Positions 9,010 to 44,220 are shown, counted from the stretch's first letter. The stretch: 64,000 bases of DNA from Candidatus Nanopelagicales bacterium (GCA_021741645.1 JAIOXK010000003.1:3504-67503); one strand, 5' to 3'. Numbers and translations: made by a program. The notes: generated by a model from the sequence alone, not told the origin.

Positions 9010-9136
9010 GGTGCCTCCTCTCCCGCCTGAACTAGCCTGCCGACGGCTCTCGTGGTTGAGAACCGCACCTGACGGTAACGAGTCCGTCTGCCCCATGAGG
9101 AGGATGCCGCAGGAGACGTTCGGTTTTTCGCTGCGA

Positions 9137-9538
9137 TCAGTCCTCGGGCGGAGGCAGGATTCGGAAACCGCAATGCGGGCACACGCGCGCGTCCTTGGAG
9201 ATCTGCTCGGCGCAATCCGGGCACGTCTGCTTGCGCCTCCAGCCGAAGATCACGGAGACGACGGAGTTCGCCTTCGCCCCGTTCCCGACCCCGGCCAGGC
9301 AGTGCCGGCAGTAGGTGGCCAATTGGGCGGCATCCTTGGCGGGGCGGCCCTGGGCTTCTGCGGCGATCGTGTCGGCGAGATCGGCCGCCTGCTCAAGGAC
9401 ACCTCGGGACCCGGAGTCCATCGCATGGTTGACCCCCTCCCACGCCTGCCGAACCGCCTGCCTTGCTCGTCCGCGCTCCCACTCCGCACGGGCGAAGTCG
9501 ACGAGCTGCTCGGGGGTCACAGGACGATTCAACCCCAT
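9137..9538 (-). CDS. Hypothetical protein with C-terminal zinc-ribbon (CPDC..x12..CPHC)
   Basis: 133-aa ORF ending CPDCAEQISKDARVCPHCGF. The codon pattern is consistent with neighbouring genes. Confidence 0.5.
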   Translation of the reverse strand: MGLNRPVTPEQLVDFARAEWERGRARQAVRQAWEGVNHAMDSGSRGVLEQAADLADTIAAEAQGRPAKDAAQLATYCRHCLAGVGNGAKANSVVSVIFGWRRKQTCPDCAEQISKDARVCPHCGFRILPPPED

Positions 9539-9553
9539 GCGGTGGGGCCACCC

Positions 9554-23164: not shown

Positions 23165-24802
23165 TCAGTCCTCGAACCACCGCGGAGACGTCGTGCGCGG
23201 CGGGTGGAATGGCTCCCGAAGCACCACGATGCGCGGCTCGCCACGGGTATTGGCCTCGTGCGACCGCGACAGTGCCGCGCCGATGCCGGCGACGTTCGCG
23301 ACCTCCTCCGTCGCAATGCCGAACGCCTTGCCGAGAGCGGTCCAGTCGGGAGTCAGCAGGTCGACCCCGCGCTCCGGGTGGCCGAACACCTGCTGGTCGA
23401 ATCGGAGCATGCCGTAGCCACCGTCGTCGACGACCAGCAGCGTGATCGGAAGTGACTCCTGCGCGTACGTCGCCAGCTCCCCGAGGGCGAACATCGGGCC
23501 GCCATCACCGCAGACGGCCAGGGTGGGGATACCCACCGATGCCGGGCCGATGGCGGCGGGGAGGGCGTAGCCGAGGGTCCCCCACCCGACCGGATACTGA
23601 AGGCGGCGGGGGCGCGGCTGGGAGCTGTAGCCGCCGTACCAGTAGGCGCCCACCGCCATGTCGCACACGATCGCACTGGACGCCGGCCACGCGCCATCGA
23701 TCTGATGCACCCAGGCGACTCCCGCGGAGCCGCGGGGGTCCTTGGCCAGACGAGCCATGATGGTCGGCCGGATTCCCGTGACGGCGACCCACGCAGCGCG
23801 CTCGCGCACCCCGGTGTCCTCGAGTGTCTCGTCCAGAGCCGCAAGAGTGAGCCCCACATCAGCGCGGATGACCGAGTTCCAGTCGATGGTCCTGGTGACC
23901 ACATCGCCGAGGGTCACCACCGCTCGTCGATCCGGGAGCGGGATCCGCCAGTTCTTGGTGTTCATCCCGTCGAAGGACGATCCGAGGACCAGAAGCAGGT
24001 CCGATTGCGCCAGCAGTTCTGACACCTCAGGCTCGTGGACGGGCGCATCGACCAGATGAGCATCGCCCGCTAGCAGGCCGCGGCCTGCGTAGCTCGTGAG
24101 CACGGGTGCACCGATGCGATGCGCGAGCGCGCGCAGGGACTCCTCTGCATCGGCTGCCACGACTCCGCCCCCGGCCCAGATGACCGGCCGTTGGCTGACG
24201 CTGATGAGCTCGGCCAGTACCGACACGTCATGCGGGTCCGGGGCGAGTGCAGGCAGGTGCGGGATGTGGGGGATGGCAGACGTCCAGGCCTCGCCAAGGA
24301 CGTCGGTGGGGATCCCGACGTAGCTGCCTGCGGCGGGTGGCCCCCACGCTTCACGGAGGGCGAGCACTGTGGAGGCGATGGCGTCCTGCCGCGTCCGTGC
24401 TCGCCTGGCCGTGGCTCCGAAGGCCTCGAACAGCGCCCCCTGATCGGCCATCTCGTGCAGGATGCCGCGGGGCCCCTCGGGTGATCGCAGCGACGCGTTC
24501 ACCTCGCTGGCGAAGGTGAGGACAGGTGAGCCGCTGACGAAGGCCTCCCCGAAGGCGGCAACCATGTTGGCCGCCCCGGGTCCACTCGTGAGCAGTGCTG
24601 CGGCGATCTCGCCGGTCGCCCTATGCAGGGCATCGCTTGCATAGCCGGCCGCCTGCTCATGCCGCACGCCGATGATTCGCGGGATGTCCGGGCCCTCGGC
24701 ATCCCAGAAGGGGAGGTTGTGGACACCGGGAATGCCGAACGCGCGCCGAACTCCGTGTCGCCCCAACAGGGTCAAGATGGCAGAGGCGACGGACGTGCTC
24801 AT
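23165..24802 (-). CDS. Thiamine-pyrophosphate-dependent enzyme (acetolactate-synthase-like family; substrate unknown)
   Basis: N-terminal PYR domain (FGIPGVHNLPFWDA, HEQAAGYASDA, TSGPGAANM). TPP-binding motif CGDGGPMF..x..VVDDGGYG. Confidence 0.8.
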   Translation of the reverse strand: MSTSVASAILTLLGRHGVRRAFGIPGVHNLPFWDAEGPDIPRIIGVRHEQAAGYASDALHRATGEIAAALLTSGPGAANMVAAFGEAFVSGSPVLTFASEVNASLRSPEGPRGILHEMADQGALFEAFGATARRARTRQDAIASTVLALREAWGPPAAGSYVGIPTDVLGEAWTSAIPHIPHLPALAPDPHDVSVLAELISVSQRPVIWAGGGVVAADAEESLRALAHRIGAPVLTSYAGRGLLAGDAHLVDAPVHEPEVSELLAQSDLLLVLGSSFDGMNTKNWRIPLPDRRAVVTLGDVVTRTIDWNSVIRADVGLTLAALDETLEDTGVRERAAWVAVTGIRPTIMARLAKDPRGSAGVAWVHQIDGAWPASSAIVCDMAVGAYWYGGYSSQPRPRRLQYPVGWGTLGYALPAAIGPASVGIPTLAVCGDGGPMFALGELATYAQESLPITLLVVDDGGYGMLRFDQQVFGHPERGVDLLTPDWTALGKAFGIATEEVANVAGIGAALSRSHEANTRGEPRIVVLREPFHPPRTTSPRWFED

Positions 24803-24804
24803 CC

Positions 24805-26352
24805 CTAGGCCCGAGAGTCGAACATGCCGAGGAGGGCGGCGATGCCCAGCACACTTCGTGGCGAGTAGGCCGCCCGCCAGAGACCTCCGTGGTTGGCCCC
24901 CTGTGCGAACAGGTCCATGGGGTTGGCCAAGGGTGTGCTCGGCTGAGCCGCTGCAGACGGATTGCGGAGGTCATGCACCAGGAGTGCAGCCATGAGCGTC
25001 GTCGTCGTCGGTGGGTCGAAGACCTCGACGCCAAAGCGCCCGGCACCGGCGTACGCGGCTGCTAGCGCCCGATTCTTGACGACGGAATTGGTGCGAGTGG
25101 CCGGGGCAAGATTCAAGGAGACAGGGACGCCGTCAGCCCGGGCGACGAGAGCACGCCAGCGCTGAAGGCGCTTGGCGAGGGCGTAGTTGGGTCCCTGCTG
25201 GGGCACCAGTGAGTCGTTGATGCCGAACACGTTGCCGTTGTCTGCGGTGTAGGTGCGCGTGTAGTTCGGCTCGAACTGCTTCAGCAGGCGCAGCGGCGTC
25301 TGGAGCAGACCGCCGATCCCTCGCGACTCCCATCTGCGCCGTGACTCCTCGACCGCCGCGAGGGGAACCATGAACACGTCCGTCGGCGTTGCGAGGTAGG
25401 CGAGGGTGACGTCCGTGCGAGTGGACGTGAGCTCGGTGACGATGGCGTCTGCGGCCATCGACAGCAGCACGTGGGCGGAGCCGTCCGCGTAGGCGTACAT
25501 GCCCATGACGAAGGGATTCTCGATCTGGCGCAGCCACGTCAGGAGTTCGGGAGTCTGGCGCAGGAGGTCTGCACCCGCATGAGTCGCGACGGCGTCGTCG
25601 TCCTCTGGATGCACGTGCCCGCCCACGACGAACGGGGGCTGGCCGTGGTCGTCCAGGGCCACCGGGATGCGGAGCGACCCTGCGGTGCTCCGAGTAGTGG
25701 AGATCAGGCGCTGCCAGATGTCCGGGCGCGGCAGGTCCACCGCATGGACGCGCGCTCCCCAGCGCAGCAGGGATCGAGTCGGGGCGAGTTCGGCCCCCGC
25801 TCCGAGCACGGCGATGTCGATATCCCGCAGGTCCATCCACTCCGGGTTGGCCACGATCAGGTCGATCGCCTCCGCGAAGCCGGGCTCGGCGATGCCCGTG
25901 CCAACCCAGGAGTCGATCTGCCGGCGCAGGTCGTCACCGAAGAGGCGACGTCCCTTGTAGGGAAGGGTGAGCCGCGTCTCGCGATCGGCGATGCCCTGCA
26001 CGGTGACGGATCCGAAGCCGGGCGCGGACCAGCGGCGCATCGCCTCCCAGAGCGGCAGCTGCTCGCCAGATCGGGAGAACACGAATCTGCGGTGAGCGGA
26101 CTCGAGGCCGTCACGCGAGACGGTGAGGGCAGCTTCACTGTTCATGGCAGAGGCGAGGGAGATGTCGCGCAGGGGGCCGATGTAGCCGCCGCGCCAGTCT
26201 GATGTGTGCTCGATCTGCGCTGCGATTCCGGGGTCCACTCTGCGGGCGCAGTCCGCGAACACCGCGCGTCCGGTCGCACTCGTGCTGCGCTGGCCGTCAC
26301 CGCCCGTGGGGAAGGCGACGCCTTCCATCTCGGTGCGGGGAACGTCAGCCAT
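24805..26352 (-). CDS. Conserved-looking 515-aa protein of unknown function with a central Rossmann-like segment
   Basis: Long ORF tightly packed between the ferredoxin-reductase and TPP-enzyme genes (2-nt and 9-nt gaps). IAVLGAGAELAPTRSLLRWGARVHAVD resembles a beta-alpha-beta dinucleotide-binding unit. I recognise no family. Confidence 0.6.
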   Translation of the reverse strand: MADVPRTEMEGVAFPTGGDGQRSTSATGRAVFADCARRVDPGIAAQIEHTSDWRGGYIGPLRDISLASAMNSEAALTVSRDGLESAHRRFVFSRSGEQLPLWEAMRRWSAPGFGSVTVQGIADRETRLTLPYKGRRLFGDDLRRQIDSWVGTGIAEPGFAEAIDLIVANPEWMDLRDIDIAVLGAGAELAPTRSLLRWGARVHAVDLPRPDIWQRLISTTRSTAGSLRIPVALDDHGQPPFVVGGHVHPEDDDAVATHAGADLLRQTPELLTWLRQIENPFVMGMYAYADGSAHVLLSMAADAIVTELTSTRTDVTLAYLATPTDVFMVPLAAVEESRRRWESRGIGGLLQTPLRLLKQFEPNYTRTYTADNGNVFGINDSLVPQQGPNYALAKRLQRWRALVARADGVPVSLNLAPATRTNSVVKNRALAAAYAGAGRFGVEVFDPPTTTTLMAALLVHDLRNPSAAAQPSTPLANPMDLFAQGANHGGLWRAAYSPRSVLGIAALLGMFDSRA

Positions 26353-26361
26353 GGTCGGAGA

Positions 26362-27546
26362 TTAGCAATGTGATCGGGCCGCGATTTCTTTGCGATAGGG
26401 GATGAGGTCAGAGGTGCGATCAATGCCCACCACGCCCACGAGTCCCAAGGGATCCCGGTACTCGACGATGCAGGGACCATTCAGGTCGCCGTCGACGAGA
26501 CTGATGTCCGTGGCCAGGCCCGGCATTCCGAATGACTGGATCCTAAGGGCGTACTGATCGGACCAGAAAGAGGGCATGGCGGTGAAGGGGGCCTCGCTAG
26601 GCGATTCCCCGCGGAGGATCTGTGCCAGTGTCTGTCCTGCTCGCCGTCCAGTCTCGGTGGGGATGCTCCAATGTTCGACTCGTCGCGGCGCTGAGCCGAA
26701 GAGGGCATTGGGGTGGCGAGCGATGTCTCCCACCGCGACCACGGGCGCCAGCTCGGTTGGCACCCGCATGGCGCTATCAGTCTCGACTCCGTCGCTCAGG
26801 TCGAGTCCGTTGCCCTCGAGCCACTCAACATTGGGCACGCTACCCACGGCTTCGATGAGCACATCGGCCAGAAGCTCCGTCCCGTCATCCAAGGTCACAC
26901 TTCGAACTTGGTCACCGCCATTGGTTGCTTCAATGGTGTGCCCGAGTCGAAAGTGCACCCCCTGAGCCTCATGGCGACGCCGCAACGCTGAACTCAACTC
27001 GTCACCAAGCGGCCGGACCATCGGCTCATGATCAGCGGCGATGACGGTCACGTGCGCGCCAAGTGCGCGTGCCGTGGCTGCAACCTCACACCCGAGGAAG
27101 CCGGATCCGAGAATGACCAGATTCAGTTCACGTCGAAGCCTTGCTCGGACTGCTGCAGCATCGGCAGCGGTGCGCAGCACGAATCGTCCTTGGGTCGGGC
27201 CGGGAAACGGTAGCCGTCGTGGTCTGATGCCTGTTGCGATGACGAGCGCGTCGAAGGGCACGGCCTCACCGGTATCGAGGGTGAGAAGGCGGTCGGTCAG
27301 ATCAGTTTTCGTGATCGTGGAGTTGACCATCCAGTCGACATCGTCGACGGAGGACTTTCGTGGAAACTCCAGAGCCTCAACGTCGACGCCGTTGAGCAGG
27401 GCCCCCTTCGAAAGGGGAGGTCGGTTGTACGGCATGGAGTCCTCGTTGCCGATGACCGTGAGGGGACCCGCGAAACCGCTCGCACGCAATGACTCTGCGG
27501 TCCGAAGCGCTCCGAGTCCGCCGCCTGCTACGACCACACCATTCAT
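26362..27546 (-). CDS. NAD(P)H-dependent ferredoxin reductase (FAD, pyridine-nucleotide disulfide oxidoreductase fold)
   Basis: VVVAGGGLGALRTAESLR..YNRPPLSK and a second GSGFLGCEVA motif. Start set to ATG 27546 (MNGVVVAGGG). The track ORF extends to 27585. Confidence 0.8.
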   Translation of the reverse strand: MNGVVVAGGGLGALRTAESLRASGFAGPLTVIGNEDSMPYNRPPLSKGALLNGVDVEALEFPRKSSVDDVDWMVNSTITKTDLTDRLLTLDTGEAVPFDALVIATGIRPRRLPFPGPTQGRFVLRTAADAAAVRARLRRELNLVILGSGFLGCEVAATARALGAHVTVIAADHEPMVRPLGDELSSALRRRHEAQGVHFRLGHTIEATNGGDQVRSVTLDDGTELLADVLIEAVGSVPNVEWLEGNGLDLSDGVETDSAMRVPTELAPVVAVGDIARHPNALFGSAPRRVEHWSIPTETGRRAGQTLAQILRGESPSEAPFTAMPSFWSDQYALRIQSFGMPGLATDISLVDGDLNGPCIVEYRDPLGLVGVVGIDRTSDLIPYRKEIAARSHC

Positions 27547-27554
27547 TTTCAGAC

Positions 27555-27743
27555 CTAGGAAACGGTGATCGCCTGCATGGGACACATGTCGGCAGCCCGT
27601 TCCGCGTCGTCCCGCCGTTCGTCTCCGACGCCGCTGGTCGGCACGCTGACGCCGTCGTCATCCAGTTCAAACAGGTCCTCAGACTCGAGAACACACTGGC
27701 CATAGCCCTCGCACTTCGCACGATCCACCACGATGGTGAGCAT
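27555..27743 (-). CDS. Small [3Fe-4S]/[4Fe-4S]-type ferredoxin (P450 redox partner type)
   Basis: 62-aa protein with MLTIVVDRAKCEGYGQCV....CPMQAI. ATG 27743 follows AGGAGG. Confidence 0.8.
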   Translation of the reverse strand: MLTIVVDRAKCEGYGQCVLESEDLFELDDDGVSVPTSGVGDERRDDAERAADMCPMQAITVS

Positions 27744-27784: not shown

Positions 27785-27800
27785 TGTTCGGACCCTAATG
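27785..27800. promoter_or_regulatory. Operator-like palindrome, copy 1 (TGTTCGGACCCTAATG; reverse complement CATTAGGGTCCGAACA)
   Basis: One of four near-identical 16-mers in island promoters. It sits 42 nt upstream of the ferredoxin ATG, in the divergent region shared with the PuuD-like gene. Confidence 0.6.
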
Positions 27801-27891
27801 GACAATGGGGCAGCGGTTTGTCTTCGCCACCAGTTCAGGCGCGTGAGGCGATCTGCTGGCGAAGGGTCAACGACCGAGAACGGAGTAGTAC

Positions 27892-28590
27892 ATGGCTGCG
27901 CGACCGCGGATTGCGATTCTTGGACGCTTCACCGAGTCCGCGAGTGCGCTGCGCTACCGGGGTGTGATCTCGGCTCGAGCGCTTCTCGACGCCGTATGGG
28001 CGGCCGGAGGTGATCCTGTGACGCTGCTTCCCGGCGACGACCCCGAGGCGCTTGACTGGAGCGCACGACTGGCCGGTTTCGGTGCGGTTCTCCTGGCCGG
28101 CGGAGGTGACATCGATCCTCGACACTATGGGGGTGACCACCAGCACCACTCCGTGTACGACGTGGATCAGGTGCAGGACACGGCTGATCTGTCCCTAGCC
28201 TCTTACTGCCTGACATGGGGCATGCCGACGCTTGCGGTATGCCGTGGGATGCACATCGTGAACGTTGTGCGCGGCGGATCTCTTATCGTGGACATGCCGA
28301 AGAATCATCGGAACGTCGTTCAGGAAATCCGACTTGGCGAAGGCTCCGCACCCTTGGGAATCGGAGATGATCGCGTCACCATAAGTTGCTACCACCATCA
28401 GGCGATCGACCGACTGGGTGCTGGAATGAAGGTCGTTTCGCGATCCGATGACGGCACTGTCGAAGCGGTCGTCATTGACGCACCGGCGTGGGCAGTGGGC
28501 GTTCAGTGGCACCCTGAGGACACGTGGTCAACGGACCCAGCGCAGGTTCGATTGCTGAGAACTCTGGTGGAACACGCTCGCGGGCGTTGA
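27892..28590 (+). CDS. Gamma-glutamyl-gamma-aminobutyrate hydrolase family protein (PuuD-like, peptidase C26, class I GATase)
   Basis: Nucleophile elbow LAVCRGMHIVNVVRGG and GVQWHPE. Confidence 0.8.
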   Translation: MAARPRIAILGRFTESASALRYRGVISARALLDAVWAAGGDPVTLLPGDDPEALDWSARLAGFGAVLLAGGGDIDPRHYGGDHQHHSVYDVDQVQDTADLSLASYCLTWGMPTLAVCRGMHIVNVVRGGSLIVDMPKNHRNVVQEIRLGEGSAPLGIGDDRVTISCYHHQAIDRLGAGMKVVSRSDDGTVEAVVIDAPAWAVGVQWHPEDTWSTDPAQVRLLRTLVEHARGR

Positions 28591-28626
28591 ACGCTCGTCG
28601 GTCGGCAGTGGATGACCGGTGAAGGA

Positions 28627-29436
28627 CTAGAGGGGTCGAGAGGAGTCTGCCAGCAGAGTGCCGCCTGCAAAGGTGGTGCCAACCTCACAGTAGTAGCCGC
28701 CGATGACCTCGTCCACGGGAAGCAGGCGTGCGGGCTCGTCCCACGGTGAGTTGAAGAGGGAGAGCTCAGCATCGCCCTTCCACGGTTGTCCGAGGTCCAC
28801 GTCAATGCCGCCCATGGTCACGATCTGCTCCATCGACATGCCTGCGCCAGGGACCAGAGATGGCATGTAGCGGTGGTGGAGCATCTTGTGCGCATTGACA
28901 AAGCCGTTCGACTCGGCCGGCTCACGCAAGGTGACTCTTGCCTGCGCGATCCGGTGGTCGTAGGCGGCAAGTGAGGCACCGAAGGTGCCGCCTTCGCCGA
29001 TCCGAGGGGCGGCGATTCCGCGGTTGTACGGGCGGGTGACATAGATGCTGCCGAGCTTCTTGGGATAACCCTGGAACCAGCCGCGACCAATCGCAAAGTC
29101 CGTGGTCACCCAGATCAGGACGCAGCGGCTGTAGGTGACCCCTTGGTACTTTGTGCGGACCACGACGAATGCCTCGAGGTATTGCGAGCGGGCCGGGTCG
29201 AGGAGTTCCTCCCCACCAGTGCTGCAGGACTGCCAGTCGGCCCAGATAAAGGCGACTGCGCCCGGGTCCTCATCGGCCAGATCCAGGTCCGGAGGCAGGA
29301 TCGCGCGAACGTTCGCGGGATCCGTCCGGTACTCGACCGTCAGGAGGGTTCCGGAGTAGTGCCAGGGCATCTCCGGGATGAGGGCGGTGCGGCCGGAATC
29401 GGTGTAGGGCGGCAGAAATCCTCGGGAGTGGGTCAT
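28627..29436 (-). CDS. Acetoacetate decarboxylase-like superfamily protein
   Basis: 269-aa ORF with PPYTDSGRTALIPEMPWHYSGTLLTVEYRTDPANVRAILPP, typical of the ADC family N-terminus. Last gene of the meta-cleavage operon. Confidence 0.65.
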   Translation of the reverse strand: MTHSRGFLPPYTDSGRTALIPEMPWHYSGTLLTVEYRTDPANVRAILPPDLDLADEDPGAVAFIWADWQSCSTGGEELLDPARSQYLEAFVVVRTKYQGVTYSRCVLIWVTTDFAIGRGWFQGYPKKLGSIYVTRPYNRGIAAPRIGEGGTFGASLAAYDHRIAQARVTLREPAESNGFVNAHKMLHHRYMPSLVPGAGMSMEQIVTMGGIDVDLGQPWKGDAELSLFNSPWDEPARLLPVDEVIGGYYCEVGTTFAGGTLLADSSRPL

Positions 29437-30332
29437 GGGCGGTTGTTCACCTGATCCTTTGCCTCGGTGACCGTGGACGGATACAGGTCCTTGGACGGTG
29501 TGCGAATCCCGCGGAACTCCCAGTCGCCACCCATGGCAGTGGAGACGACCTCTTCACTCTCGGTGGGCTGGGCACCGCAGTCATCACGGATGGGGGCTGG
29601 GCCCTGAACAATCGTGTTGGAGAGGGTTCCGATCCCTTCGACCTCGACCTCGACGACATCGCCGGGGTAGACGGTCCGCGAGAAGGCGGGTGTTCCGGAG
29701 AACAGGACATCTCCGGGAACGAGGGTGATGGTTCGCGCGATGTCGGCGACGAGGTAGTTCATGTCCCACTCCATCTCGGCCGTGGTGGAGTCCTGCTTGA
29801 CGACTCCGTTGACGCGCGTCTGGATCCCCTTGTTGCGGAAGTCCCAGTCCGTGACGAGCCCGGGACCGATGGGGGCCAGAGTGTCGGAGCCCTTCACCCG
29901 GAGCATCGATCCGGCGTCGGTGTCGCGGAAGTCGTGCAGCCCGTAGTCGTTTCCGACCGTGTAGCCAGCGATGTAGTCCCCGGCCTCGTCAGGCGAGATA
30001 TTGCGGCAGGTCCGGCCGATGACGATGACGATCTCGCCCTCGTAGTTCAGCCACTTGCAGCGCTCGGGACGGACCACGTCCCCTCTGTGCGAGTTGAGTG
30101 CGGTGATCGGCTTGTGGAAGTAGGTGGGGGCGGCGGGGAGCTTCGTCATGAACTCCTCGGTGCGGGAGGCGTAGTTCAAGTGCACCGCAATGATCTTTGT
30201 CGGCTCCACTGGGGGCAGGTGGACGGCTTCTTCGACTCCGACGGTGCGCCCGTCTGGTGCTGCGAGCTCGTCACCGTGTCGGACGACCTGAACGGGAGCT
30301 CCCTCGAGGAGGATGCGCCGGTACTCCGTCAT
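29433..30332 (-). CDS. Fumarylacetoacetate hydrolase family protein (HpaG/OPET-decarboxylase-like)
   Basis: FAH-fold motifs (KIIAVHLNYASR, YEGEIVIVIG, GDVLFSGTP). ATGA overlaps on both sides. Confidence 0.8.
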   Translation of the reverse strand: MTEYRRILLEGAPVQVVRHGDELAAPDGRTVGVEEAVHLPPVEPTKIIAVHLNYASRTEEFMTKLPAAPTYFHKPITALNSHRGDVVRPERCKWLNYEGEIVIVIGRTCRNISPDEAGDYIAGYTVGNDYGLHDFRDTDAGSMLRVKGSDTLAPIGPGLVTDWDFRNKGIQTRVNGVVKQDSTTAEMEWDMNYLVADIARTITLVPGDVLFSGTPAFSRTVYPGDVVEVEVEGIGTLSNTIVQGPAPIRDDCGAQPTESEEVVSTAMGGDWEFRGIRTPSKDLYPSTVTEAKDQVNNRP

Positions 30333-31234
30333 GCCATAGCTCCCTTACCTGTCCATCCCGATTCCGGGCGGTCGAACCACACATGCACCTGACTTGTTCC
30401 AATTGAGTTCTCATAGTCGGAGATCTGGCGACCGGATGCCACAAAGTCACGCTCGCCCAGGGCGGCGGCCATCATCAGGTAGTGCGCGAACTTGGCCTCC
30501 GGCCGCACGGTGAGGAACTCGTCCATCGTGTCGAGCACCGTGTCGTGTCGCCCCTCGGACATCCATGCCAGACGCTCGTAGTCCATTTCGCGAGCCTTGT
30601 CACTGAAGAGGTACTTGGGGTCTGAGCGCTCCACCTCGGGGTTCGTGCGGATCTCGCGCAGGGGGTAGAAGGTGTGCGACATCGATCCGGTCGCGATGAC
30701 GATGACCTTGCGGTCGACGTCGGCGATGGCCTGCCCGATCGCACGTCCGACGCGCAGGTAGTCCTCGGTATCAGCTGTCTGGCAAACGCTCATCGACAGC
30801 CACTGCTTGTCGAGTCCTCTTCCGAGGTACGACCAGATGTTGATGCTGGGGTAGTACAGCGGGAGGTACTCATCGTCATTCGGGGTGATCCAGGTGCCCT
30901 GCTCGTCAGCATGGGAGGCGATCGCATGAGCGAACTCCGGGTCCCCGCGCCACTCGTAGGGGATTCGGCACATTCCCCGGGGGAGTTCCTCGGCCGTGAA
31001 GAGCCCGGCTCGTCTATTGTGCGCGGTGACGACGAACTCGACCGTGGTGAACCAGTGGGAGTCGAGGACGAGGACGGTGTCGTAATCCATGGCCTCGAAG
31101 ACGTCCTTGCGGAGCTTCTCGAGCGCTGGGACAAGGGATATCTCCTTGCCGTCGTTCAACTCCAGTCGAGTCTCACGCGGGAGCATGATCGTCGGAACGT
31201 GAGACAGCAACCCTGCGGCGACGAACTCACCCAT
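30329..31234 (-). CDS. Class III (LigB-type) extradiol dioxygenase, homoprotocatechuate 2,3-dioxygenase-like
   Basis: SHVPTIML, VLDSHWF and ATGSMSHTF parallel E. coli HpcB/HpaD motifs (THVPSMYL, DTHWL, ASGSLSHRF; recalled). Start ATG 31234 lies 2 nt after the ALDH stop. The first 73 codons of the track ORF overlap the ALDH gene and are rejected. Confidence 0.75.
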   Translation of the reverse strand: MGEFVAAGLLSHVPTIMLPRETRLELNDGKEISLVPALEKLRKDVFEAMDYDTVLVLDSHWFTTVEFVVTAHNRRAGLFTAEELPRGMCRIPYEWRGDPEFAHAIASHADEQGTWITPNDDEYLPLYYPSINIWSYLGRGLDKQWLSMSVCQTADTEDYLRVGRAIGQAIADVDRKVIVIATGSMSHTFYPLREIRTNPEVERSDPKYLFSDKAREMDYERLAWMSEGRHDTVLDTMDEFLTVRPEAKFAHYLMMAAALGERDFVASGRQISDYENSIGTSQVHVWFDRPESGWTGKGAMA

Positions 31235-31236
31235 GC

Positions 31237-32700
31237 CTAGCCCTTCCATCCGTTCGGTGCGTAGACCGTGTTCTTGACATCGGCGTAGAAGTCGAAGGAC
31301 CACAGGCCGCCCTCGCGCCCGATTCCTGACTTCTTCGATCCGCCGAAGGGTGCGGAGAGATCGCGGACGAAGAAGCAGTTCACCCAGATGGTCCCGGCGA
31401 CGAGGAACCGGCAGAAGTCCTCCGCCCTCATCCGGCTGCCGCTGACGACGCACGCCGCGAGGCCGAACTCGGTGCCGTTGGCAAGATCAAGGCCCTCCTC
31501 GTCGGTATCGAAGACCTGCATGGTGAGGACCGGCCCGAAGACCTCCTGGGTCAGGATCTCACTGCCCTGGGGAGCATCGACGATGAGCGTGGGTCTGAAG
31601 TAGTGCGATCCCAATTCGGTGTTGACTTCGCCGCCGTAGGCGAGGGTCGCGCCGTCGGAAACCGCGCGATCGACGAAGGCCTGCACCCGCTCGATGTGCG
31701 TAAGGTGGATGTTCGGCCCGATCTGAGTCTCCTCATTGCGCGGGTCGCCCTGCGTGATCTGGCCCGCGCGCTCACGGAATCGCTCGATGAAGGCGTCGGC
31801 GACACCACGTTGAACGAGCAGCCGGGTGCCCGCCAGGCACACCTGGCCCGCGTTGTCGTACTGCTCGATGGCTAGATCGACGGCAAGGTCCAGATCAGCA
31901 TCGTCCAGGATGACGGTGGGACTCTTGCCACCCAGCTCGAACGAGCACGGAGTCAGATTGTCAGCGGCCGCATGAGCGATGACCTTCGCGGTGGGCACTG
32001 ACCCGGTGAAGCAGATGCGCGAAACGTCGGGGTTGGAGGTCAGGGGTGCTCCGGCTTCCGCGCCGAACCCCTGCACGACGTTGAAGACGCCCGCGGGCAG
32101 GCCGGCCCTATGGGCCAGGTCAGCGAAGTAGGAAGCGGTGAGAGGTGCCCACTCCGGTGGCTTCAGGACGACTGTGTCGCCGGAGGCAAGAGCAGGTCCG
32201 ATCCGCCAGGTGGCGAGCATGAGGGGCGCGTTCCAGGGCGTGATGATGACGGCGACTCCGGAGGGATCCCACGACACGTGGTTGGTATGCCCACGAGTCT
32301 CGAACTCTGGGTGGCTGAGGCGATTCATCGCGTAGTCAGCGAAGAAGCGGATGTTCATTGCGACGCGAGGCATGACTCCTCGGCGATGGGATCGCAGGAG
32401 CGAGCCGTTGTCGAGCGTCTCGATCTGGGCTAGCTCTTCAACGTGCTCGTCGATCGAGTCGGCCAGACGGAGAAGGATCTCGCCGCGCTCGGCGGGCGAC
32501 ATGCGCGACCACGTGAGGAAAGCCTCCCTGGCGGCGGCCACGGCGGCATCCGCCTCGAGCTTCCCACCGCGCGAGATCTGACCGAGGACGGATCCGTCCA
32601 CCGGAGAGACGGTGTCGAAGGTGCTGTCGGACGCGACGCGTGTGCCACCGATCCAATGCCGGGTGTCGATGTCGACCCCGGCGATGGTGATCGAGGTCAT
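31237..32700 (-). CDS. Aldehyde dehydrogenase (5-carboxymethyl-2-hydroxymuconate semialdehyde dehydrogenase-like)
   Basis: ALDH catalytic motifs (ELGGKSP, FFVRDLSAPFGG region) and Cys region CLAGTR. First gene of the operon with the LigB dioxygenase. Confidence 0.8.
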   Translation of the reverse strand: MTSITIAGVDIDTRHWIGGTRVASDSTFDTVSPVDGSVLGQISRGGKLEADAAVAAAREAFLTWSRMSPAERGEILLRLADSIDEHVEELAQIETLDNGSLLRSHRRGVMPRVAMNIRFFADYAMNRLSHPEFETRGHTNHVSWDPSGVAVIITPWNAPLMLATWRIGPALASGDTVVLKPPEWAPLTASYFADLAHRAGLPAGVFNVVQGFGAEAGAPLTSNPDVSRICFTGSVPTAKVIAHAAADNLTPCSFELGGKSPTVILDDADLDLAVDLAIEQYDNAGQVCLAGTRLLVQRGVADAFIERFRERAGQITQGDPRNEETQIGPNIHLTHIERVQAFVDRAVSDGATLAYGGEVNTELGSHYFRPTLIVDAPQGSEILTQEVFGPVLTMQVFDTDEEGLDLANGTEFGLAACVVSGSRMRAEDFCRFLVAGTIWVNCFFVRDLSAPFGGSKKSGIGREGGLWSFDFYADVKNTVYAPNGWKG

Positions 32701-32740
32701 GGGTCTCCTCTGATGGGCCTACGGACGCCCTATCCTAGAT

Positions 32741-32756
32741 CGTTCGGACCCAAACG
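32741..32756. promoter_or_regulatory. Operator-like palindrome, copy 2 (CGTTCGGACCCAAACG)
   Basis: 41 nt upstream of the ALDH start codon (32700). Preceded by GAT, as in copies 3 and 4. Confidence 0.6.
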
Positions 32757-32786
32757 GAAAGTGCTTTGTCGGATCCGACGAAGAGG

Positions 32787-33284
32787 TCACTTCGTGTTGA
32801 CGGCCTTGACGAGCAGTCGCAGCGTCTCAGCCGTGTCCTCCTTGCTGCCGACTGGCAGCAGGCGACTTGAGTAGGTCTCCTGCTCATTGATTTGCGGGAA
32901 GAGGCTGGTGATCAAGCGGGTGCCTGACTTGGTGAGGGTCACCCTGACCAACCGGCCATCGTCCACACTCTTGGTGCGTCGAACGAGCTTCCGCTTCTCA
33001 AGAGTGGTGAGCACGCCGCTGAGAGTGGCCTTCGAGACGCCTGCCTCATCGGCGATGACTCGCGTTTCCGCACCATCCCAGATCCAGACGACCCAGAGGA
33101 CCACGAATGCCGTCCAGGTCAGATCCACCGGCGTGAGGACGTGACGCTCCATGTGGTTGCGGACGGCATTTGCGGCGCGAAAGAGGTTGGAGATCACGCG
33201 CATGGACTCGAAATCCATGGCCAGGCCGGCAATCTTTGATTCAGCGGCACGCTCTGTCTCCAGAAGGGTATGCGGTCCCGCCAC
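32787..33284 (-). CDS. MarR family transcriptional regulator
   Basis: wHTH core (LTWTAFVVLWVVWIWDGAETRVIADEAGVSKATLSGVLTTLEKRKLVRR). GTG 33284 follows GGGAGG. Confidence 0.8.
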   Translation of the reverse strand: MAGPHTLLETERAAESKIAGLAMDFESMRVISNLFRAANAVRNHMERHVLTPVDLTWTAFVVLWVVWIWDGAETRVIADEAGVSKATLSGVLTTLEKRKLVRRTKSVDDGRLVRVTLTKSGTRLITSLFPQINEQETYSSRLLPVGSKEDTAETLRLLVKAVNTK

Positions 33285-33383
33285 GCTGCCTCCCTTGTCC
33301 GGTCATCGAACCCTAGACGATGGGTGGCGGACCGGCCTGTCGGGTCCGTTCGTGGACCCGGGTCGATGCGCGAGGTGGTCGGC

Positions 33384-34376
33384 TCACAGGTCGATCGACA
33401 GGTGGCCGGACTTCCAGCGGGAGACGCAGATCATCATCGTCTCGTTGCTGGCGCGTTCCTCGTCATTCAGGATGGAATCGCGATGGTCGACCTCGCCGCT
33501 GAGAACGACGGTCTCGCAGGTGCCGCAGATGCCCTCGTGGCACGAGCCGAGCACGCTCACCCCGTTATCCTGTGCGGTGTCGAAGATGGACCTGTCTGCG
33601 GGCACGGTGATGGTGATCCCGGTGCGCGCGAGTTCGACCTCGAACTCGGAGTCGACAGCCCCGTCGATCACCTTGGGCGAGAACCGCTCGACATGGAGTG
33701 CACCTGCGGGCCAGGCGGCGCAGCGCGCTTCCACGGCGGTCAGGAGCCCCTCTGGGCCGCAGGCATAGACCAGAGTGTCGGGGCGTACGGTGCCCAGCCG
33801 CTCATCGAGGGCAGCGGACATGGCAGAGATGTCGTCGCCGGGCAGCAGGGTGATGCGGTCGCCGTAGGCCGTGAGCTCGTCAGTGAATCCCATCGACGAT
33901 GCGCTGCGACCGCCGTAGGCCAGTGTCCAGTCCGATCCCGCCTCGTTGGCCTCGGCGATCATGGGCAGGATCGGGGTGATCCCCACACCTCCGGCGATGA
34001 ATACGTAGCGCGGCGAGGGGACCAGCGGAAAGTGGTTTCGGGGTCCGCGAACATGCATCGTGCTCCCGCGCGACGCGTTCTCGTGGACGAAGCGTGACCC
34101 CCCTCGACCGTCAGGGGCGTTGAGCACTCCCACGCGGTAGGCGAAGCGGTCTGCTGGCGAACCGCAGAGTGAGTACTGGCGGGTGATCTCGGGAGTGAGG
34201 TCCATGTCGATGTGGGCACCGGGAGCCCACTCGGGCAGCGGCAGGCCGTCAGGATGGCGCAGGGTCAGGACCAGGAGGTCGTCGGCGACAACATCACGGG
34301 ACTCAACGATCGCATCGCACTCGAACTCCACCGCCGACTCGATCGCTGCAGTGTCGGTCGTTGCCGTGTGAGACAT
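33384..34376 (-). CDS. PDR/VanB-type oxidoreductase (FMN/NAD-binding plus C-terminal plant-type 2Fe-2S)
   Basis: YVFIAGGVGITPILPM and the C-terminal cluster motif CHEGICGTCETVV. Its start lies 3 nt downstream of the P450 gene stop. Confidence 0.85.
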   Translation of the reverse strand: MSHTATTDTAAIESAVEFECDAIVESRDVVADDLLVLTLRHPDGLPLPEWAPGAHIDMDLTPEITRQYSLCGSPADRFAYRVGVLNAPDGRGGSRFVHENASRGSTMHVRGPRNHFPLVPSPRYVFIAGGVGITPILPMIAEANEAGSDWTLAYGGRSASSMGFTDELTAYGDRITLLPGDDISAMSAALDERLGTVRPDTLVYACGPEGLLTAVEARCAAWPAGALHVERFSPKVIDGAVDSEFEVELARTGITITVPADRSIFDTAQDNGVSVLGSCHEGICGTCETVVLSGEVDHRDSILNDEERASNETMMICVSRWKSGHLSIDL

Positions 34377-34379
34377 GGG

Positions 34380-35639
34380 CTACTTGGCCTTGACCCGCAC
34401 GGGGAAGCGCTTGACCCCGTTGACGAAATTGCTGCGGACGCGCTCGATCTCGCCGGTCTGCTCGATGGAGGCGAGGCGGGGGAGCAGCTCCTCGAACAGG
34501 ATCCGAATCTCCAGTCGGGCGAGATTCGCGCCGAGGCAGGTGTGGACGCCCTTGCCGAAGGTCAGATGATCATTGGGGAAGCGAGAGAGATCCAGGTCGT
34601 AGGGGTTGCTGAATCTCTCAGGATCGCGGTTGCCTGCGGCGAACCACGTCACGATCTTGTCGCCCTTCTTGATGGTCTTCCCGTGGAGCTCGACGTCCTT
34701 CGTCGCCGTCCGTCGGAAGTGGTAGACGGGGGAGGCGTAGCGGAGCATCTCCTCCACCATGATCTGCGACTTGTCCATGTTGTCGAGGAAGTACTGCATC
34801 TGGTCGGGGTAGTCCATCAGGGCCTTCATGGACAGCGTCATGGCCTGGCGGGTTGTCTCGTTGCCCGCAACGATGAGCAGCAGGAAGTAGTTGTCGAAGT
34901 CGGTGTCGGTCAGGGGGATGCCGTCGTCGGGCATGCGATTGACCAACTTGCTGATTAGGTCTTCGCCTTCACCACCGCGTCGCTCCTGGGCGAGCTGACG
35001 TCCATACTCGAAGATCTCCATGGACACGGGATTACGGAACGGCAGGTGTGTCCACTTCTGCGCCTCGTCGCTGTCGACCAGCACCTTGGACAGCTCGGGG
35101 TCGGAGAAGCCGATGATGGTGTTGCCCCATTCGATGAGCTGGGGAGTCATCTCGTCGGGAACGTCGAGCAGACGGGCCAAGACGTTGATCGGGAAGTCCG
35201 CGGCGACGGCCTCGACGAAGTCGACGTCCTCTTGCTGCAGCGCCTGTTCGATGGACGTGCGCGCGAGACCTCGCAGGAAGTCCTCGTAGCGCCTGAGCTG
35301 GGCCACGCTGAAGTCGCGTGCGAGGAGCTTCCGCAGCGCAAGATGACGGGAACCGTCACTCTCCAGAATCGAGCGTCGCAGGTCCTGGAACTCCTCTGGC
35401 GGCTCCTCCAAGTTGACGAACTGCGTGGATGTGAACGTCTCGCCGTCCTTGTTGACCCTCTCGATGTCATCGAAGCGCGTCACCGACCAGAAGCCGCGCC
35501 CGTCACTGGTGAGCTCGTCCTGCCAGTGCAGGGGGTCCTCCGACCGGAGCGTCTCGAACATGCCCCACGCCTCGTCGTGCTCGAAGTAGTCGAGGTTCGT
35601 GAGATCGACGTCTGTGAGCGGAATGGGCGTTGGCTGCAT
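34380..35639 (-). CDS. Cytochrome P450 (no. 1)
   Basis: Heme-thiolate loop FGKGVHTCLGANLA, EMLR (ExxR) and AGNETT I-helix motif. GGAGA RBS. Confidence 0.9.
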   Translation of the reverse strand: MQPTPIPLTDVDLTNLDYFEHDEAWGMFETLRSEDPLHWQDELTSDGRGFWSVTRFDDIERVNKDGETFTSTQFVNLEEPPEEFQDLRRSILESDGSRHLALRKLLARDFSVAQLRRYEDFLRGLARTSIEQALQQEDVDFVEAVAADFPINVLARLLDVPDEMTPQLIEWGNTIIGFSDPELSKVLVDSDEAQKWTHLPFRNPVSMEIFEYGRQLAQERRGGEGEDLISKLVNRMPDDGIPLTDTDFDNYFLLLIVAGNETTRQAMTLSMKALMDYPDQMQYFLDNMDKSQIMVEEMLRYASPVYHFRRTATKDVELHGKTIKKGDKIVTWFAAGNRDPERFSNPYDLDLSRFPNDHLTFGKGVHTCLGANLARLEIRILFEELLPRLASIEQTGEIERVRSNFVNGVKRFPVRVKAK

Positions 35640-35664
35640 CGCGTCTCCAGGTGCTGTGGAAGAT

Positions 35665-35680
35665 CGTTAGGGTCCGAACG
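35665..35680. promoter_or_regulatory. Operator-like palindrome, copy 3 (CGTTAGGGTCCGAACG)
   Basis: 26 nt upstream of the P450 no. 1 start codon. Confidence 0.6.
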
Positions 35681-35708
35681 GTAGGCTAGGCAGTAGTCGC
35701 GTGGTTGG

Positions 35709-36443
35709 TCAAGGGGTGGACGCAAGCGTCCGGGCTCCGGGTGCGCCGGCGATACGGTCGATGAAGGCGTCGACGAGGCTCTGTGCACGAAGTGCGGCGT
35801 CCTCCCCCTCGGCAAGGGTGTGCTGGTAGAGGATGTCGGGATCTTGACCGTCGGCCTCCACCTGTGAGCGTCCTCCGTTGTTGAACCACCCCTGAAGTCC
35901 GGCCGCTGTGAGTTCTGGGTGAAATTGGACGGCGAGGTTTCTTCGGAGCGTGAACGCCTGTGAGGCGAGGGAGTCCCGAGCAATCTCATGGGCCCCCGGG
36001 GGTAGCTGCCATCGGTCGAAGTGCCACTGGAACCACGGTCCCGGGCCCACGAGATCGGGCTCCTGCGTCCAGATGGGGGTCCACCCGATCTGGGGGCGCG
36101 GAGACCGAGCCACGGAGCCTCCGTGCGCTCGGGCCAGCAGCTGGCCGCCGAAGCAGATGCCCAGGATGGGTACGTCGAGCTCATCGGCCCGGCGCAGCCA
36201 GTCCATCTCGGGCAGCAGCCAGTTGCCGATCGTCTCGTCGTCCCACGCGCCCCACGGGGCGCCCATCACGACCAGGGCGTCGAAGTCACGAGGATCGGGG
36301 AATTCGAAGGGGATGTTGGGATCGTGGAAGTGCTCGGGCGCTACGACGACCCGATCGACCACCTCGTACCCGCGGTGAGCGAACCTCTCGGCCACTGGGC
36401 CTGCCGGACTCAGATGGTCATGCTGGAGAAACAGCACTCGCAT
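35709..36443 (-). CDS. Class I glutamine amidotransferase-like protein (GMP-synthase-type GATase1, stand-alone)
   Basis: VPILGICFGGQLLARAHGG nucleophile elbow and QFHPE. Divergent from a GS-like gene. Confidence 0.8.
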   Translation of the reverse strand: MRVLFLQHDHLSPAGPVAERFAHRGYEVVDRVVVAPEHFHDPNIPFEFPDPRDFDALVVMGAPWGAWDDETIGNWLLPEMDWLRRADELDVPILGICFGGQLLARAHGGSVARSPRPQIGWTPIWTQEPDLVGPGPWFQWHFDRWQLPPGAHEIARDSLASQAFTLRRNLAVQFHPELTAAGLQGWFNNGGRSQVEADGQDPDILYQHTLAEGEDAALRAQSLVDAFIDRIAGAPGARTLASTP

Positions 36444-36513
36444 GGTCTACCCCCTGCCAGAATCGTCAGAAGTCCTTCCCCGTTCGCCGGGGTCGGTCTA
36501 GTATCCACAAGAT

Positions 36514-36529
36514 CGTTGGGGTCCGAACG
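36514..36529. promoter_or_regulatory. Operator-like palindrome, copy 4 (CGTTGGGGTCCGAACG; extended GATCGTT..AACGAATC)
   Basis: 40 nt upstream of the GS-like start (36569) and 71 nt upstream of the divergent GATase1 start. Confidence 0.6.
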
Positions 36530-36568: not shown

Positions 36569-37927
36569 ATGCAGCACGACCTGGCCGAAACCCGCCGCAT
36601 CCTGGAGACGCAGGACATCGACGTCGTTCGTCTGATCTTCGCCGACCTCCTCGGCATCACGCGATCCAAGGACGTCCTGGTCTCCCAGCTGGAGCGCGCG
36701 GCGGAGCACGGTCCGGCGTTCTGCCAGGGCACCTGGGTGACGACCACGCGGGGCGGTGTCCTGGACGCCGGCAGTGGCACCGGCAGCATCGAGGACGGCC
36801 TGCCGGACATGATCTCCAAGCTCGACGTCGACACGATCCGCCCGATCCCGTGGCTCCCCGGCGTCGCCTACGCGATAGCGGACATCGACAACCCGGACGG
36901 CAGTCGCAGCACGATCGCACCGCGGGCCGTGCTCCGCGCAGTTCTCGACGAGTATGCGAAGGACGGGCTGCTCCCCATCTGCGGTCCCGAGCTCGAGTTC
37001 TATCTCGCGCAGCGCACGGACGATGGCTGGGAGCGCCTCCTCAACAAACTCGGCCGTGTCTACACGACAGGGTCAATGGTGGATCCCGATGGTCACTACC
37101 TGCACCTGCTTCGGATGATGGATCAGTTGAACATCGGGGCATTCGCCGGCAACCACGAGTTCTGTCCCTCTCAGTACGAGATCAACCTGTGGCACAGCGA
37201 GGCCATGGATGCCGCTGATCGCACGTTCCTCTTCAAGACGGCAGTCAAGGATGTGAGCGCGTCCAGGGGAATCCTGGGCACGTTCCTTGGCAAGCCTTGG
37301 AACGACGAGGGCGGTAGCGGCTTTCACGTGCACCTTTCCGTCAACGACGATTCCGGTGTCAACCGCATGCACGACGGTGCAGGCGAGCTCTCGCCACTGG
37401 CACTCCAGATGATCGCGGGCATCATCGATCATGCCCCCGCCCTTGCGGCCTTCACCAACCCGACGGTGAACGCCTACAAACGGCTGGGTCCTGACACGCT
37501 GGCGCCGTATCGGTCCAATTGGGGCTACGACAACCGATCCACCATGCTGCGGGTCCCGCCGGATCGAGGCCAGGGCACTCGCCTGGAACTGCGCATCGGA
37601 GATGGAACGGCGAACCCGTATGTCGTCATCGCGGTTGTGCTTGCGGCTGCACTCGACGGCGTGCGTCGTGGCCTCACGCCGCCGGAGGCTGCCGCAGGAT
37701 GGGCCTATGAGGACGAGGCCTTCCCGGTGCTACCGATGACTCTGGCCGAGGCGCTCGATGCCCTTCAGGCTGATGAGACGCTGCGAGAACTGCTGCCGAG
37801 CGACTTCCTCAATGTGTTCGTCACGATGAAGCGTGATGAGGTGGAGCGCTACGAGGCCGAGGTCGAGGACCCGACCACCCGTGAGGTCACCCGCTGGGAG
37901 CTCGAGGAGTACATCGAGGACTTCTAG
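36569..37927 (+). CDS. Glutamine synthetase family protein (gamma-glutamyl-amine ligase candidate), copy A
   Basis: GS catalytic-domain motifs GPELEFYL, NHEFCPSQYEINL and GSGFHVHLS. 452 aa. Confidence 0.8.
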   Translation: MQHDLAETRRILETQDIDVVRLIFADLLGITRSKDVLVSQLERAAEHGPAFCQGTWVTTTRGGVLDAGSGTGSIEDGLPDMISKLDVDTIRPIPWLPGVAYAIADIDNPDGSRSTIAPRAVLRAVLDEYAKDGLLPICGPELEFYLAQRTDDGWERLLNKLGRVYTTGSMVDPDGHYLHLLRMMDQLNIGAFAGNHEFCPSQYEINLWHSEAMDAADRTFLFKTAVKDVSASRGILGTFLGKPWNDEGGSGFHVHLSVNDDSGVNRMHDGAGELSPLALQMIAGIIDHAPALAAFTNPTVNAYKRLGPDTLAPYRSNWGYDNRSTMLRVPPDRGQGTRLELRIGDGTANPYVVIAVVLAAALDGVRRGLTPPEAAAGWAYEDEAFPVLPMTLAEALDALQADETLRELLPSDFLNVFVTMKRDEVERYEAEVEDPTTREVTRWELEEYIEDF

Positions 37928-40189: not shown

Positions 40190-40205
40190 TGATATTTGAT
40201 GAAAG
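40190..40205. promoter_or_regulatory. AT-rich box, copy 1 (reverse complement CTTTCATCAAATATCA)
   Basis: Lies in the divergent LLM / APC-permease promoter. Shares the ATCAA(A/G)TATC core with the boxes at 44206 and 48594. Confidence 0.45.
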
Positions 40206-40290
40206 TGCTTGACCGGTCAATGGCGATGCGGGAATGTGAGCCATCGTTTGGTCCCGTATGACTCGACTATCCCGTCCCCGTGGAGGAAGC

Positions 40291-44137: not shown

Positions 44138-44205
44138 GGGGAGGCCTTTCGATTGGGTGCGGACGGTTATGCCGATTTACGCTCACGATAGCCGCTCGGA
44201 CACTA

Positions 44206-44220
44206 CATTTATCAAGTATC
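44206..44220. promoter_or_regulatory. AT-rich box, copy 2 (CATTTATCAAGTATC)
   Basis: Lies in the divergent ADH / GS-like promoter. The 10-mer CATTTATCAA is identical to 48594..48603. Confidence 0.45.

Follow-up and report, generated by a model that had tools for sequence, protein, structure and literature searches.

A palindromic promoter element as the very probable operator of a MarR-family regulator in a gene island of uncultured Actinomycetota

In the established mode of action of MarR-family regulators, repression is exerted from a palindrome of 16-20 bp that lies over the promoter and is lifted by a ligand, as described for PcaV (PMC3616709) and HpaR (PMC7180172). PcaV is the MarR-family repressor of the protocatechuate (pca) operon in Streptomyces coelicolor (PMC3616709) and HpaR that of the homoprotocatechuate (hpa-meta) operon in E. 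coli W, Yersinia and Acinetobacter (PMC7180172; PDB 7el2/7el3). A further local repressor of S. coelicolor, EpuRI, acts on the glutamine synthetase (GS)-like gene glnA4 (PMC6529630). Here we describe a palindromic element in a 64-kb stretch of DNA ('the window') of Candidatus Nanopelagicales bacterium (GCA_021741645.1 JAIOXK010000003.1:3504-67503). The element occurs four times within an island that encodes gamma-glutamyl ligases and hydrolases, P450s with their redox partners and a homoprotocatechuate-type ring-cleavage module, and comparative genomics makes it highly likely that the four sites are the operators of the MarR protein encoded at 32787-33284 within the same island. The mechanism would be a classic MarR switch of the ordinary kind. 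As far as literature searches show, this particular regulator-operator pair has not been described before; in a full-text search the motif strings matched only unrelated primer and siRNA sequences, and no description of the island or its regulator was found.

The system that served as a model for this proposal is PcaV, which is likewise an actinobacterial MarR protein encoded beside an aromatic-catabolic operon, binds inverted repeats of around 20 bp, has one operator close to the transcription start of the structural genes and another for its own gene, shows conservation of these sites across species and is released by the substrate of the pathway. However, the PcaV operator (TCAGxxxxCTGA) is unrelated to the CGTTCGGnCCCGAACG found here, the two proteins are only marginally similar (phmmer E = 0.002 to 4fht; around 20% identity in a structural alignment), and PcaV acts in one intergenic region, whereas in the island 4-6 promoters across more than 12 kb would be served, and the pathway is a different one. 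Considering the marginal similarity and the unrelated operator, a PcaV-type regulator was rejected. HpaR is both the best NCBIfam match and the best Foldseek match (7el3) of the island MarR. The island moreover contains HpaD-, HpaE- and HpaG-like genes, and one of the HpaR operators overlaps a -10 element and represses. Nevertheless, the identity is 22-23%, the HpaR site is AT-rich (TTAA-N4-TTAA; PMC7180172) where the island sites are GC-rich, the island enzymes score below the Hpa cut-offs, and the context of gamma-glutamylation and P450s is absent from hpa clusters. The protein was rejected as an HpaR equivalog (NCBIfam TIGR02337) on a score of 50.5 bits against a cut-off of 121.2, and the operator type differed as well. 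EpuRI resembles the present case as a GlnR-independent, pathway-specific actinobacterial repressor encoded beside the gene of a gamma-glutamyl-amide synthetase, but it belongs to an ethanolamine pathway and a single gene pair, with no operator defined in PMC6529630, whereas the locus described here is a multi-operon island.

An exact search of the window for the 13-mer TTNGGGTCCGAAC gave four matches, at 27786-27798 and 32742-32754 (minus strand) and at 35667-35679 and 36516-36528 (plus strand), whereas none of 100 dinucleotide-preserving shuffles contained it. A sequence-only reading of this DNA had already pointed to four near-identical copies of a 16-bp palindrome and had considered their chance recurrence negligible; both statements hold, and direct reading agrees with the 16-mers as they were given and with the GAT flank, which is located 5' on the plus strand in copies 2, 3 and 4. 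This flank is part of a longer palindrome of 20 bp. All copies are intergenic and located a short distance upstream of start codons, with measured gaps of 25-41 nt (26-42 in the earlier reading):

27785..27800, minus strand: site 1, CATTAGGGTCCGAACA, in the region that separates the minus-strand ferredoxin operon from the divergently transcribed, plus-strand Peptidase_C26 gene; 41 nt from the ferredoxin ATG (27743, minus strand) and 91 nt from the Peptidase_C26 start (27892)
32741..32756, minus strand: site 2, CGTTTGGGTCCGAACG, between the start of the aldehyde dehydrogenase (ALDH) gene and the MarR stop codon; 40 nt from the ALDH start (32700)
35665..35680: site 3, CGTTAGGGTCCGAACG when read on the plus strand, CGTTCGGACCCTAACG when read in the direction of the P450 gene; 25 nt from the P450 start (35639)
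36514..36529, plus strand: site 4, CGTTGGGGTCCGAACG, in the divergent GATase1/GS-like intergenic region; 39 nt from the GS-like start (36569) and 70 nt from the GATase1 start (36443)

A position weight matrix (PWM) that was built from loci outside the window only, and was then run over the window, scored sites 1 to 4 at 26.1, 31.4, 30.0 and 31.2 bits, respectively, while the best score in each of 20 block-shuffled windows averaged 11.5 bits and reached 18.5 at most. Exact search, mismatch search and PWM revealed no further copy of the motif in the window outside the island.

To follow the element across species, we used 80 MarR-centred loci (1.02 Mb in total), one per species-representative genome, that were fetched via MarR alignment. 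The MarR orthologues are 57-78% identical and all loci derive from uncultured Actinomycetota, many of which are labelled Nanopelagicales. Related loci are referred to by L-numbers (L001, L002 and so on); L201-L203 are three near relatives with a 96% identical MarR. When up to two mismatches to CGTTNGGGNCCGAACG were allowed, the 80 loci contained 246 matches, as compared to around 17 in shuffled sequence:

0 mismatches: 58 observed, 0 shuffled
1 mismatch: 101 observed, 0.8 shuffled
2 mismatches: 87 observed, 16.4 shuffled

At least one match was found in 79 of the 80 loci, and the single locus without a match is explained by a sequence that begins inside MarR, so that the upstream region is missing. 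Only around 5 of the 246 matches are located in coding sequence of the island. The remainder occupies a few fixed intergenic slots:

the divergent GS-like/GATase1 region
upstream of P450a
upstream of ALDH
upstream of ferredoxin
the permease/luciferase-like (or ADC) region
the MarR promoter, in most lineages

The four sites of the window are positional orthologues of four of these conserved slots. The sequence-only reading had suggested a look at orthologous islands, and there the sites indeed sit in the same slots of syntenic loci. Site 1 together with 7 additional nt (ccattagggtccgaacaatgtct) is identical in L201-L203, while the rest of the DNA between Peptidase_C26 and ferredoxin has diverged; the same slot holds CATTAGGGTCCGAACG in L019, L024 and L034 and the variant CATTAGGGTCCTAACG in L028. 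ALDH is preceded by an orthologue of site 2 in around 60 loci, and in the region of site 4 the arrangement cTAGTATCCAcnaGAT-CGTTGGGGnCCGAACG is kept in most of 26 aligned loci.

Pooling of 124 distinct sites yielded the consensus aTCGTTnGGGtCCGAACGAT, a palindrome of 20 bp, and judging from this alignment the full recognition sequence is the 20-bp palindrome ATCGTTCGGnCCCGAACGAT. The perfect form, CGTTCGGGCCCGAACG, does occur among the sites. Every site retains one perfect half (CCGAACG), while the other half carries a promoter-specific substitution. As is characteristic of MarR-type operators, the element is an inverted repeat of around 16-20 bp within or adjoining a promoter.

The regulator that is expected to bind these sites is the following:

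32787..33284, minus strand: MarR-family regulator gene, 165 amino acids, Pfam PF01047

By sequence threshold (PF01047, 47.8 bits with a cut-off of 24.6; PF12802, 32.5 bits with a cut-off of 27) and by fold the protein is a member of the MarR family. The AlphaFold model (pLDDT 91.5) is a winged helix-turn-helix with helices at 74-81 and 85-97, strands at 101-105 and 113-117 and an extra N-terminal helix formed by residues 7-18, and Foldseek matched it with a probability of 1.00 to HpaR, MftR, PcaV, MarR and OhrR, several of them in complex with DNA. The extra helix is shared with PecS, MftR and HucR (the UrtR group), and among solved structures only PecS (8yli) and MftR (8ylg) could be aligned across the full 165 residues (TM 0.86 and 0.80, respectively). 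On the other hand, the identity to these proteins is 21-22%, and they are urate-responsive regulators of efflux or virulence genes. Their operators are unrelated to the island motif. We found around 970 homologs of the island MarR (57-96% identity), nearly all of them metagenomic. Within an alignment of 40 MarR sequences the helix-turn-helix and wing residues are invariant, and this invariance of the DNA-reading helix and wing fits the invariance of the operator.

In most lineages the MarR promoter is occupied, usually by two sites 33-34 bp apart between the divergent P450a and MarR genes, or else by a single site 21-24 nt before the MarR start. The strict preservation of the paired spacing over many species suggests that two dimers bracket the MarR promoter, and perhaps they bind cooperatively. 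In L014-L016, L020, L029, L033, L044 and others, the paired operators flank a -10-like hexamer, GATAGT.

The sequence-only reading had inferred one repressor for all copies, with the adjacent MarR protein as the candidate, and comparative genomics strongly supports this assignment, which none of the tests contradicted. Its statement that MarR is the only regulator in the region is correct for 23-46 kb, but does not extend to the whole window, which also encodes:

8332-9096: response regulator
49911-50783, plus strand: GntR/FCD regulator, between two aldehyde dehydrogenase genes and beside genes for a CoA-transferase and an acyl-CoA dehydrogenase, an adjacent module that it probably controls
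62458-63183, minus strand: GlnR-type regulator with GlnR_1st and Trans_reg_C domains; its open reading frame (ORF) overlaps that of a neighbouring GNAT acetyltransferase, which in turn is adjoined by a polyphosphate kinase gene

The presence of the last two genes is one of the reasons to consider that the palindrome might serve another factor, be it GntR/FCD, GlnR or a global regulator encoded outside the window, with MarR controlling other genes. This explanation could also draw on the GS-like genes of the island, as some actinobacterial ones respond to nitrogen regulators, on the fact that in the window clade no recognisable site precedes MarR itself, and on the GT...AC outline of the motif, which is loosely GntR-like. 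We nevertheless consider it unlikely. MarR is the only regulator gene that is conserved together with island and motif: MarR is present in all 80 loci by construction, but nearly all of these bear the motif, most lineages have it in the MarR promoter itself, and within 10 kb of MarR the same loci gave no match to GlnR and only 1-2 matches to GntR/FCD, with one clear orthologue (L009, 72% identity). Pfam searches with ten unassigned ORFs, from five of seven diverse loci whose unassigned ORFs were listed, returned enzymes and unknowns, and a TetR regulator in one locus only. Furthermore, the GT and AC of the motif are 10 nt apart, which is far wider than in FadR-type GntR sites. The GlnR box reads gTnAc-n6-GaAAc, and on inspection the motif does not fit this box. 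GntR was accordingly rejected as the cognate regulator on its 1-2 matches in 80 loci, and GlnR, whose gene lies 26 kb away in the window, on the lack of linkage to the island in these loci, while the sites did not qualify as members of a GlnR regulon either.

Since the element is self-complementary, and since its copies before P450 and GS-like would sit at the extreme start of the transcript, one could also imagine an RNA hairpin in the 5' leaders (CGUUCGG..CCGAACG) that acts on stability, termination or translation. This is very improbable, and the hairpin was rejected because positions 5 and 12 do not covary: among the 124 sites position 5 accepts all four bases (A 32, C 47, G 24, T 21), whereas its partner, position 12, is G in 121. 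It is the sequence rather than the pairing that is conserved, including the unpaired flanks (AT...AT), and in addition one site may serve divergent genes, while the ALDH site of the window clade is upstream of the -10 and would hence be untranscribed. Least probable of all is a dispersed repeat (REP- or MITE-like) or a part of a promoter for an alternative sigma factor. It is true that the exact 16-mer pattern matches many unrelated metagenome contigs, but 110 of 120 sampled matches were single-copy, in unrelated contexts with a GC content of 0.38-0.73, and at least 62 of 122 matched metagenome sites lay inside likely coding ORFs; a search for 15 specified bases in so large a collection is expected to return such single copies by chance. 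The other 10 of the 120 were fragments of the island with the site in its usual intergenic slot. In the window no copy was found outside the island, the matches in the loci are limited to fixed promoter slots, and the element measures just 16-20 bp without any flanking repeat structure, so that after scanning of the window, the 80 loci and the metagenome contigs a dispersed repeat was rejected. A fixed -35/-10 element of a sigma factor is ruled out by the fact that distance and orientation to the -10 differ between promoters.

Returning to the MarR assignment, several points weigh against it. Site 3 has an orientation relative to its gene that is opposite to that of sites 1, 2 and 4; a palindrome is not impaired by this, but it shows that the asymmetric positions do not form a constant part of what is recognised. 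In the window and its closest clade (L001-L007 and L201-L203) no recognisable site was found upstream of MarR. There the gene apparently possesses a -10-like TAGGGT/TACTGT of its own but lacks an operator, and is probably autoregulated only via read-through from the P450-PDR operon, which is an assumption of the model. The loci were gathered by a MarR search, so that the co-occurrence of MarR and motif was sampled in one direction only, and the motif scan of this genome covers 64 kb, beyond which additional regulon members or non-island sites may exist. Finally, a scan of 27.5-36.7 kb with E. coli-type promoter and terminator criteria found none of the promoters that are discussed below. This negative outcome can be attributed to criteria that reject the actinobacterial TAnnnT -10 hexamers, and given that these criteria are unsuitable, the promoter calls rest on conservation.

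The promoter hexamers were derived from conservation in aligned orthologous intergenic regions. Upstream of P450 all 12 aligned loci share the succession TTGACC/G, 17-18 nt, TAGCCT, 2 nt, operator. In the window, the -35 and -10 of the P450-PDR promoter correspond to 35707-35712 and 35683-35688 (both minus strand), so that site 3 begins 2 nt downstream of the predicted -10 and covers the putative transcription start region. For the GS-like gene, a candidate -10 (TAGTAT, 36499-36504) is followed after 9 nt by site 4, which on the opposite strand lies 8 nt upstream of GATACT, possibly the -10 of GATase1. Site 2 occupies the spacer of the ALDH promoter: in the window clade it is followed by c/tTAGGAT, in the window by a candidate -10 TAGGAT after 3 nt (32732-32737, minus strand), whereas in the other clades TGACG is followed after 16 nt by a -10 hexamer TAGGGT inside the operator. 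Similarly, the candidate -10 of the ferredoxin promoter (TAGGGT, 27793-27798) lies within site 1. The non-palindromic position 5 of the operator follows the promoter class, being A or T before ALDH and ferredoxin, G before GS-like and C before P450 and MarR, and it is conserved within each class because the operator shares bases with the promoter there.

The location of the sites on the -10, in the spacer or on the start point is indicative of repression by occlusion. In the mechanism that we propose, a dimeric winged-helix MarR would bind the four sites, and probably a degenerate site at 40245-40260 as well. It would sit just downstream of the -10 and over the transcription start in the P450-PDR and GS-like promoters, in the spacer beside the -10 in the ALDH promoter, and over the candidate -10 TAGGGT in the ferredoxin promoter. 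Bound MarR would either exclude RNA polymerase or trap it, and the whole island would stay off until a substrate or intermediate of the pathway binds MarR and releases it. Very probably MarR is the binder at these operators, from which it would repress until relieved by a small-molecule effector.

Three weaker variants of the motif had been proposed in addition, of which two turned out to be mislocated or unsupported and one is upheld as a degenerate site. The two intergenic regions where degenerate copies could be placed are:

40245..40260, minus strand: degenerate operator in the luciferase-like/permease divergent region, minus-strand sequence CATACGGGACCAAACG
44150..44165, plus strand: doubtful degenerate site, CGATTGGGTGCGGACG, in the divergent region between the alcohol dehydrogenase (ADH) gene and the second GS-like gene

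The first of these, which had been noted upstream of the permease, carries 3 mismatches and lies 30 nt upstream of the true permease ATG at 40291. Its PWM score (17.9 bits for 40243-40262) is close to the shuffled maximum, but it is orthologous by position to a conserved site, CGTGCGGGGCCGAACG or CGTACGGGCCCGAACG in L002-L007, L013, L021 and L027, and it is identical in L201 and L202. It is probably a fifth operator of the same repressor. The variant reported around 44192-44208 is not the motif and overlaps a different conserved element. The nearby sequence at 44150-44165, also with 3 mismatches, scores 9.4 bits (44148-44167), under the mean maximum of the shuffled windows, and a similar CGGTCGGGCCCGGACG is found at the same place in L017 only; it may be a site. 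At 33305-33321, upstream of MarR, the best match has 4-5 mismatches and close relatives have no site there. What is conserved in the PDR-MarR gap instead of an operator is the -10-like TAGGGT/TACTGT, preceded by ATCGTC; in the window, this gap is 99 bp in length (33285-33383) and contains the candidate -10 TAGGGT.

The two intergenic regions with a degenerate main palindrome each contain a copy of a second shared element, ACnTTnATCAAnTATC, which was found twice in the window against an expected 0.05. One copy (40191-40206, minus strand) is located in the promoter region of the luciferase-like gene, with TTGACC before it, and the other (44205-44220, plus strand) upstream of the second GS-like gene, where it also occurs in L017. 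The element may be a promoter (-10 AAATAT/AAGTAT) or a site for another regulator.

The gene names of the sequence-only reading were confirmed by Pfam, which was also used for the annotation of the predicted targets:

23165..27743, minus strand: predicted target operon 1, encoding ferredoxin, ferredoxin reductase, a 515-aa protein and a thiamine pyrophosphate (TPP) enzyme
23165-24802, minus strand: TPP enzyme
24805-26352, minus strand: 515-aa protein without family
26362-27585, minus strand: ferredoxin reductase
27555-27743, minus strand: ferredoxin
27892..28590, plus strand: predicted target, Peptidase_C26/PuuD-like gamma-glutamyl hydrolase, divergent from site 1
28627..32700, minus strand: predicted target operon 2, encoding ALDH (HpaE-like), LigB dioxygenase (HpaD-like), FAH (HpaG-like) and an ADC/MppR-like protein
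33384..35639, minus strand: predicted target operon 3, encoding a P450 (CYP124/125-like) and a PDR-type reductase (Pfam and PDB sequence search)
35709-36443, minus strand: predicted target, GATase1, divergent from GS-like
36569-37927, plus strand: predicted target, GS-like gamma-glutamyl ligase
beyond GS-like: further island genes, namely a second P450, a luciferase-like monooxygenase, an amino-acid permease, a third P450, ADH, a second GS-like and a second GATase

A tblastn search with the proteins of the window showed the island to be syntenic in the 80 loci, with lineage-specific rearrangements. The genes common to the loci are GS-like, GATase1, P450, PDR, MarR, Peptidase_C26, ALDH, LigB, FAH and ADC, together with those for ferredoxin reductase, the 515-aa protein, the TPP enzyme, the permease and the luciferase-like protein. 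Operon 1 is syntenic in the relatives and located downstream of a site there. Its 515-aa protein had no Pfam or NCBIfam match, but more than 6,000 homologs, the best 120 listed all being at least 68% identical; it is a strongly conserved protein, with a function unassigned by family, within the predicted regulon. In most relatives, Peptidase_C26 and ALDH are transcribed divergently and the site lies in their shared intergenic region. Operon 2 is syntenic in the relatives as well, and every best NCBIfam match of its products is under the respective cut-off. Operon 3 is probably read through into MarR, and according to the PDB sequence search its P450, which adjoins site 3, is closest to hydroxylases of the CYP124/125/153 type. 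The divergent GATase1/GS-like pair with its intervening site is kept in nearly all loci. The GS-like protein matches gamma-glutamylputrescine synthetase and type III GS in NCBIfam, both below cut-off.

Taken together, the sites define a regulon of at least five, and perhaps six, transcription units over around 23-42 kb of the window, and the same regulon recurs in around 80 species-level genomes of uncultured Actinomycetota. The combination of an operator and its likely repressor offers a practical route to the inducer of the pathway, and the motif can help to recognise the island in fragmentary metagenome assemblies. More tentatively, the MarR-operator pair might bound a widely conserved catabolic pathway, undescribed as far as our searches show, in which an amine-bearing compound would be gamma-glutamylated, hydroxylated by P450s (up to three) and finally passed to a homoprotocatechuate-type ring-cleavage module. 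The hosts would then be uncultured freshwater and estuarine Actinomycetota, including lineages labelled Nanopelagicales, and MarR would sense an unusual effector, such as a gamma-glutamyl amide or a catecholic intermediate. Such a reading, taken as a whole, is possible but doubtful; were it true, operator and repressor would constitute a ready-made biosensor for the substrate of the pathway.

Some minor observations concern the gene models and the surroundings of the island. The mechanically assigned ORF starts at 40258 and 44113, and that of the ORF at 30329-31453, are probably too far upstream. The permease starts at the ATG at 40291 rather than at 40258, with a ribosome-binding site (GGAGGAAG) before it, and the second GS-like gene at the ATG at 44242 rather than at 44113. 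The LigB dioxygenase (30329-31453) is probably around 301-306 amino acids long, as in L201-L203, and not 374 amino acids with an overlap with ALDH. In L002-L007, the closest genome relatives, the gap between PDR and MarR measures 1.1 kb and contains a gene for a Rieske/VanA_C-type oxygenase (around 8860-9930), whereas L201-L203 have the same 99-bp gap as the window, which implies that the PDR reductase has lost its putative Rieske partner. The flanks of the island contain genes for secreted enzymes that degrade polysaccharides or are oxidative, at 21749-23086 (plus strand), 4350-6419 (minus strand) and 2713-4332 (plus strand). These flanking genes encode a lytic polysaccharide monooxygenase (LPMO_10 with fn3 and CBM5/12), a GH5 cellulase with CBM2 and a multicopper oxidase, and the gene for the lytic polysaccharide monooxygenase adjoins the island in L202 and L203 too.

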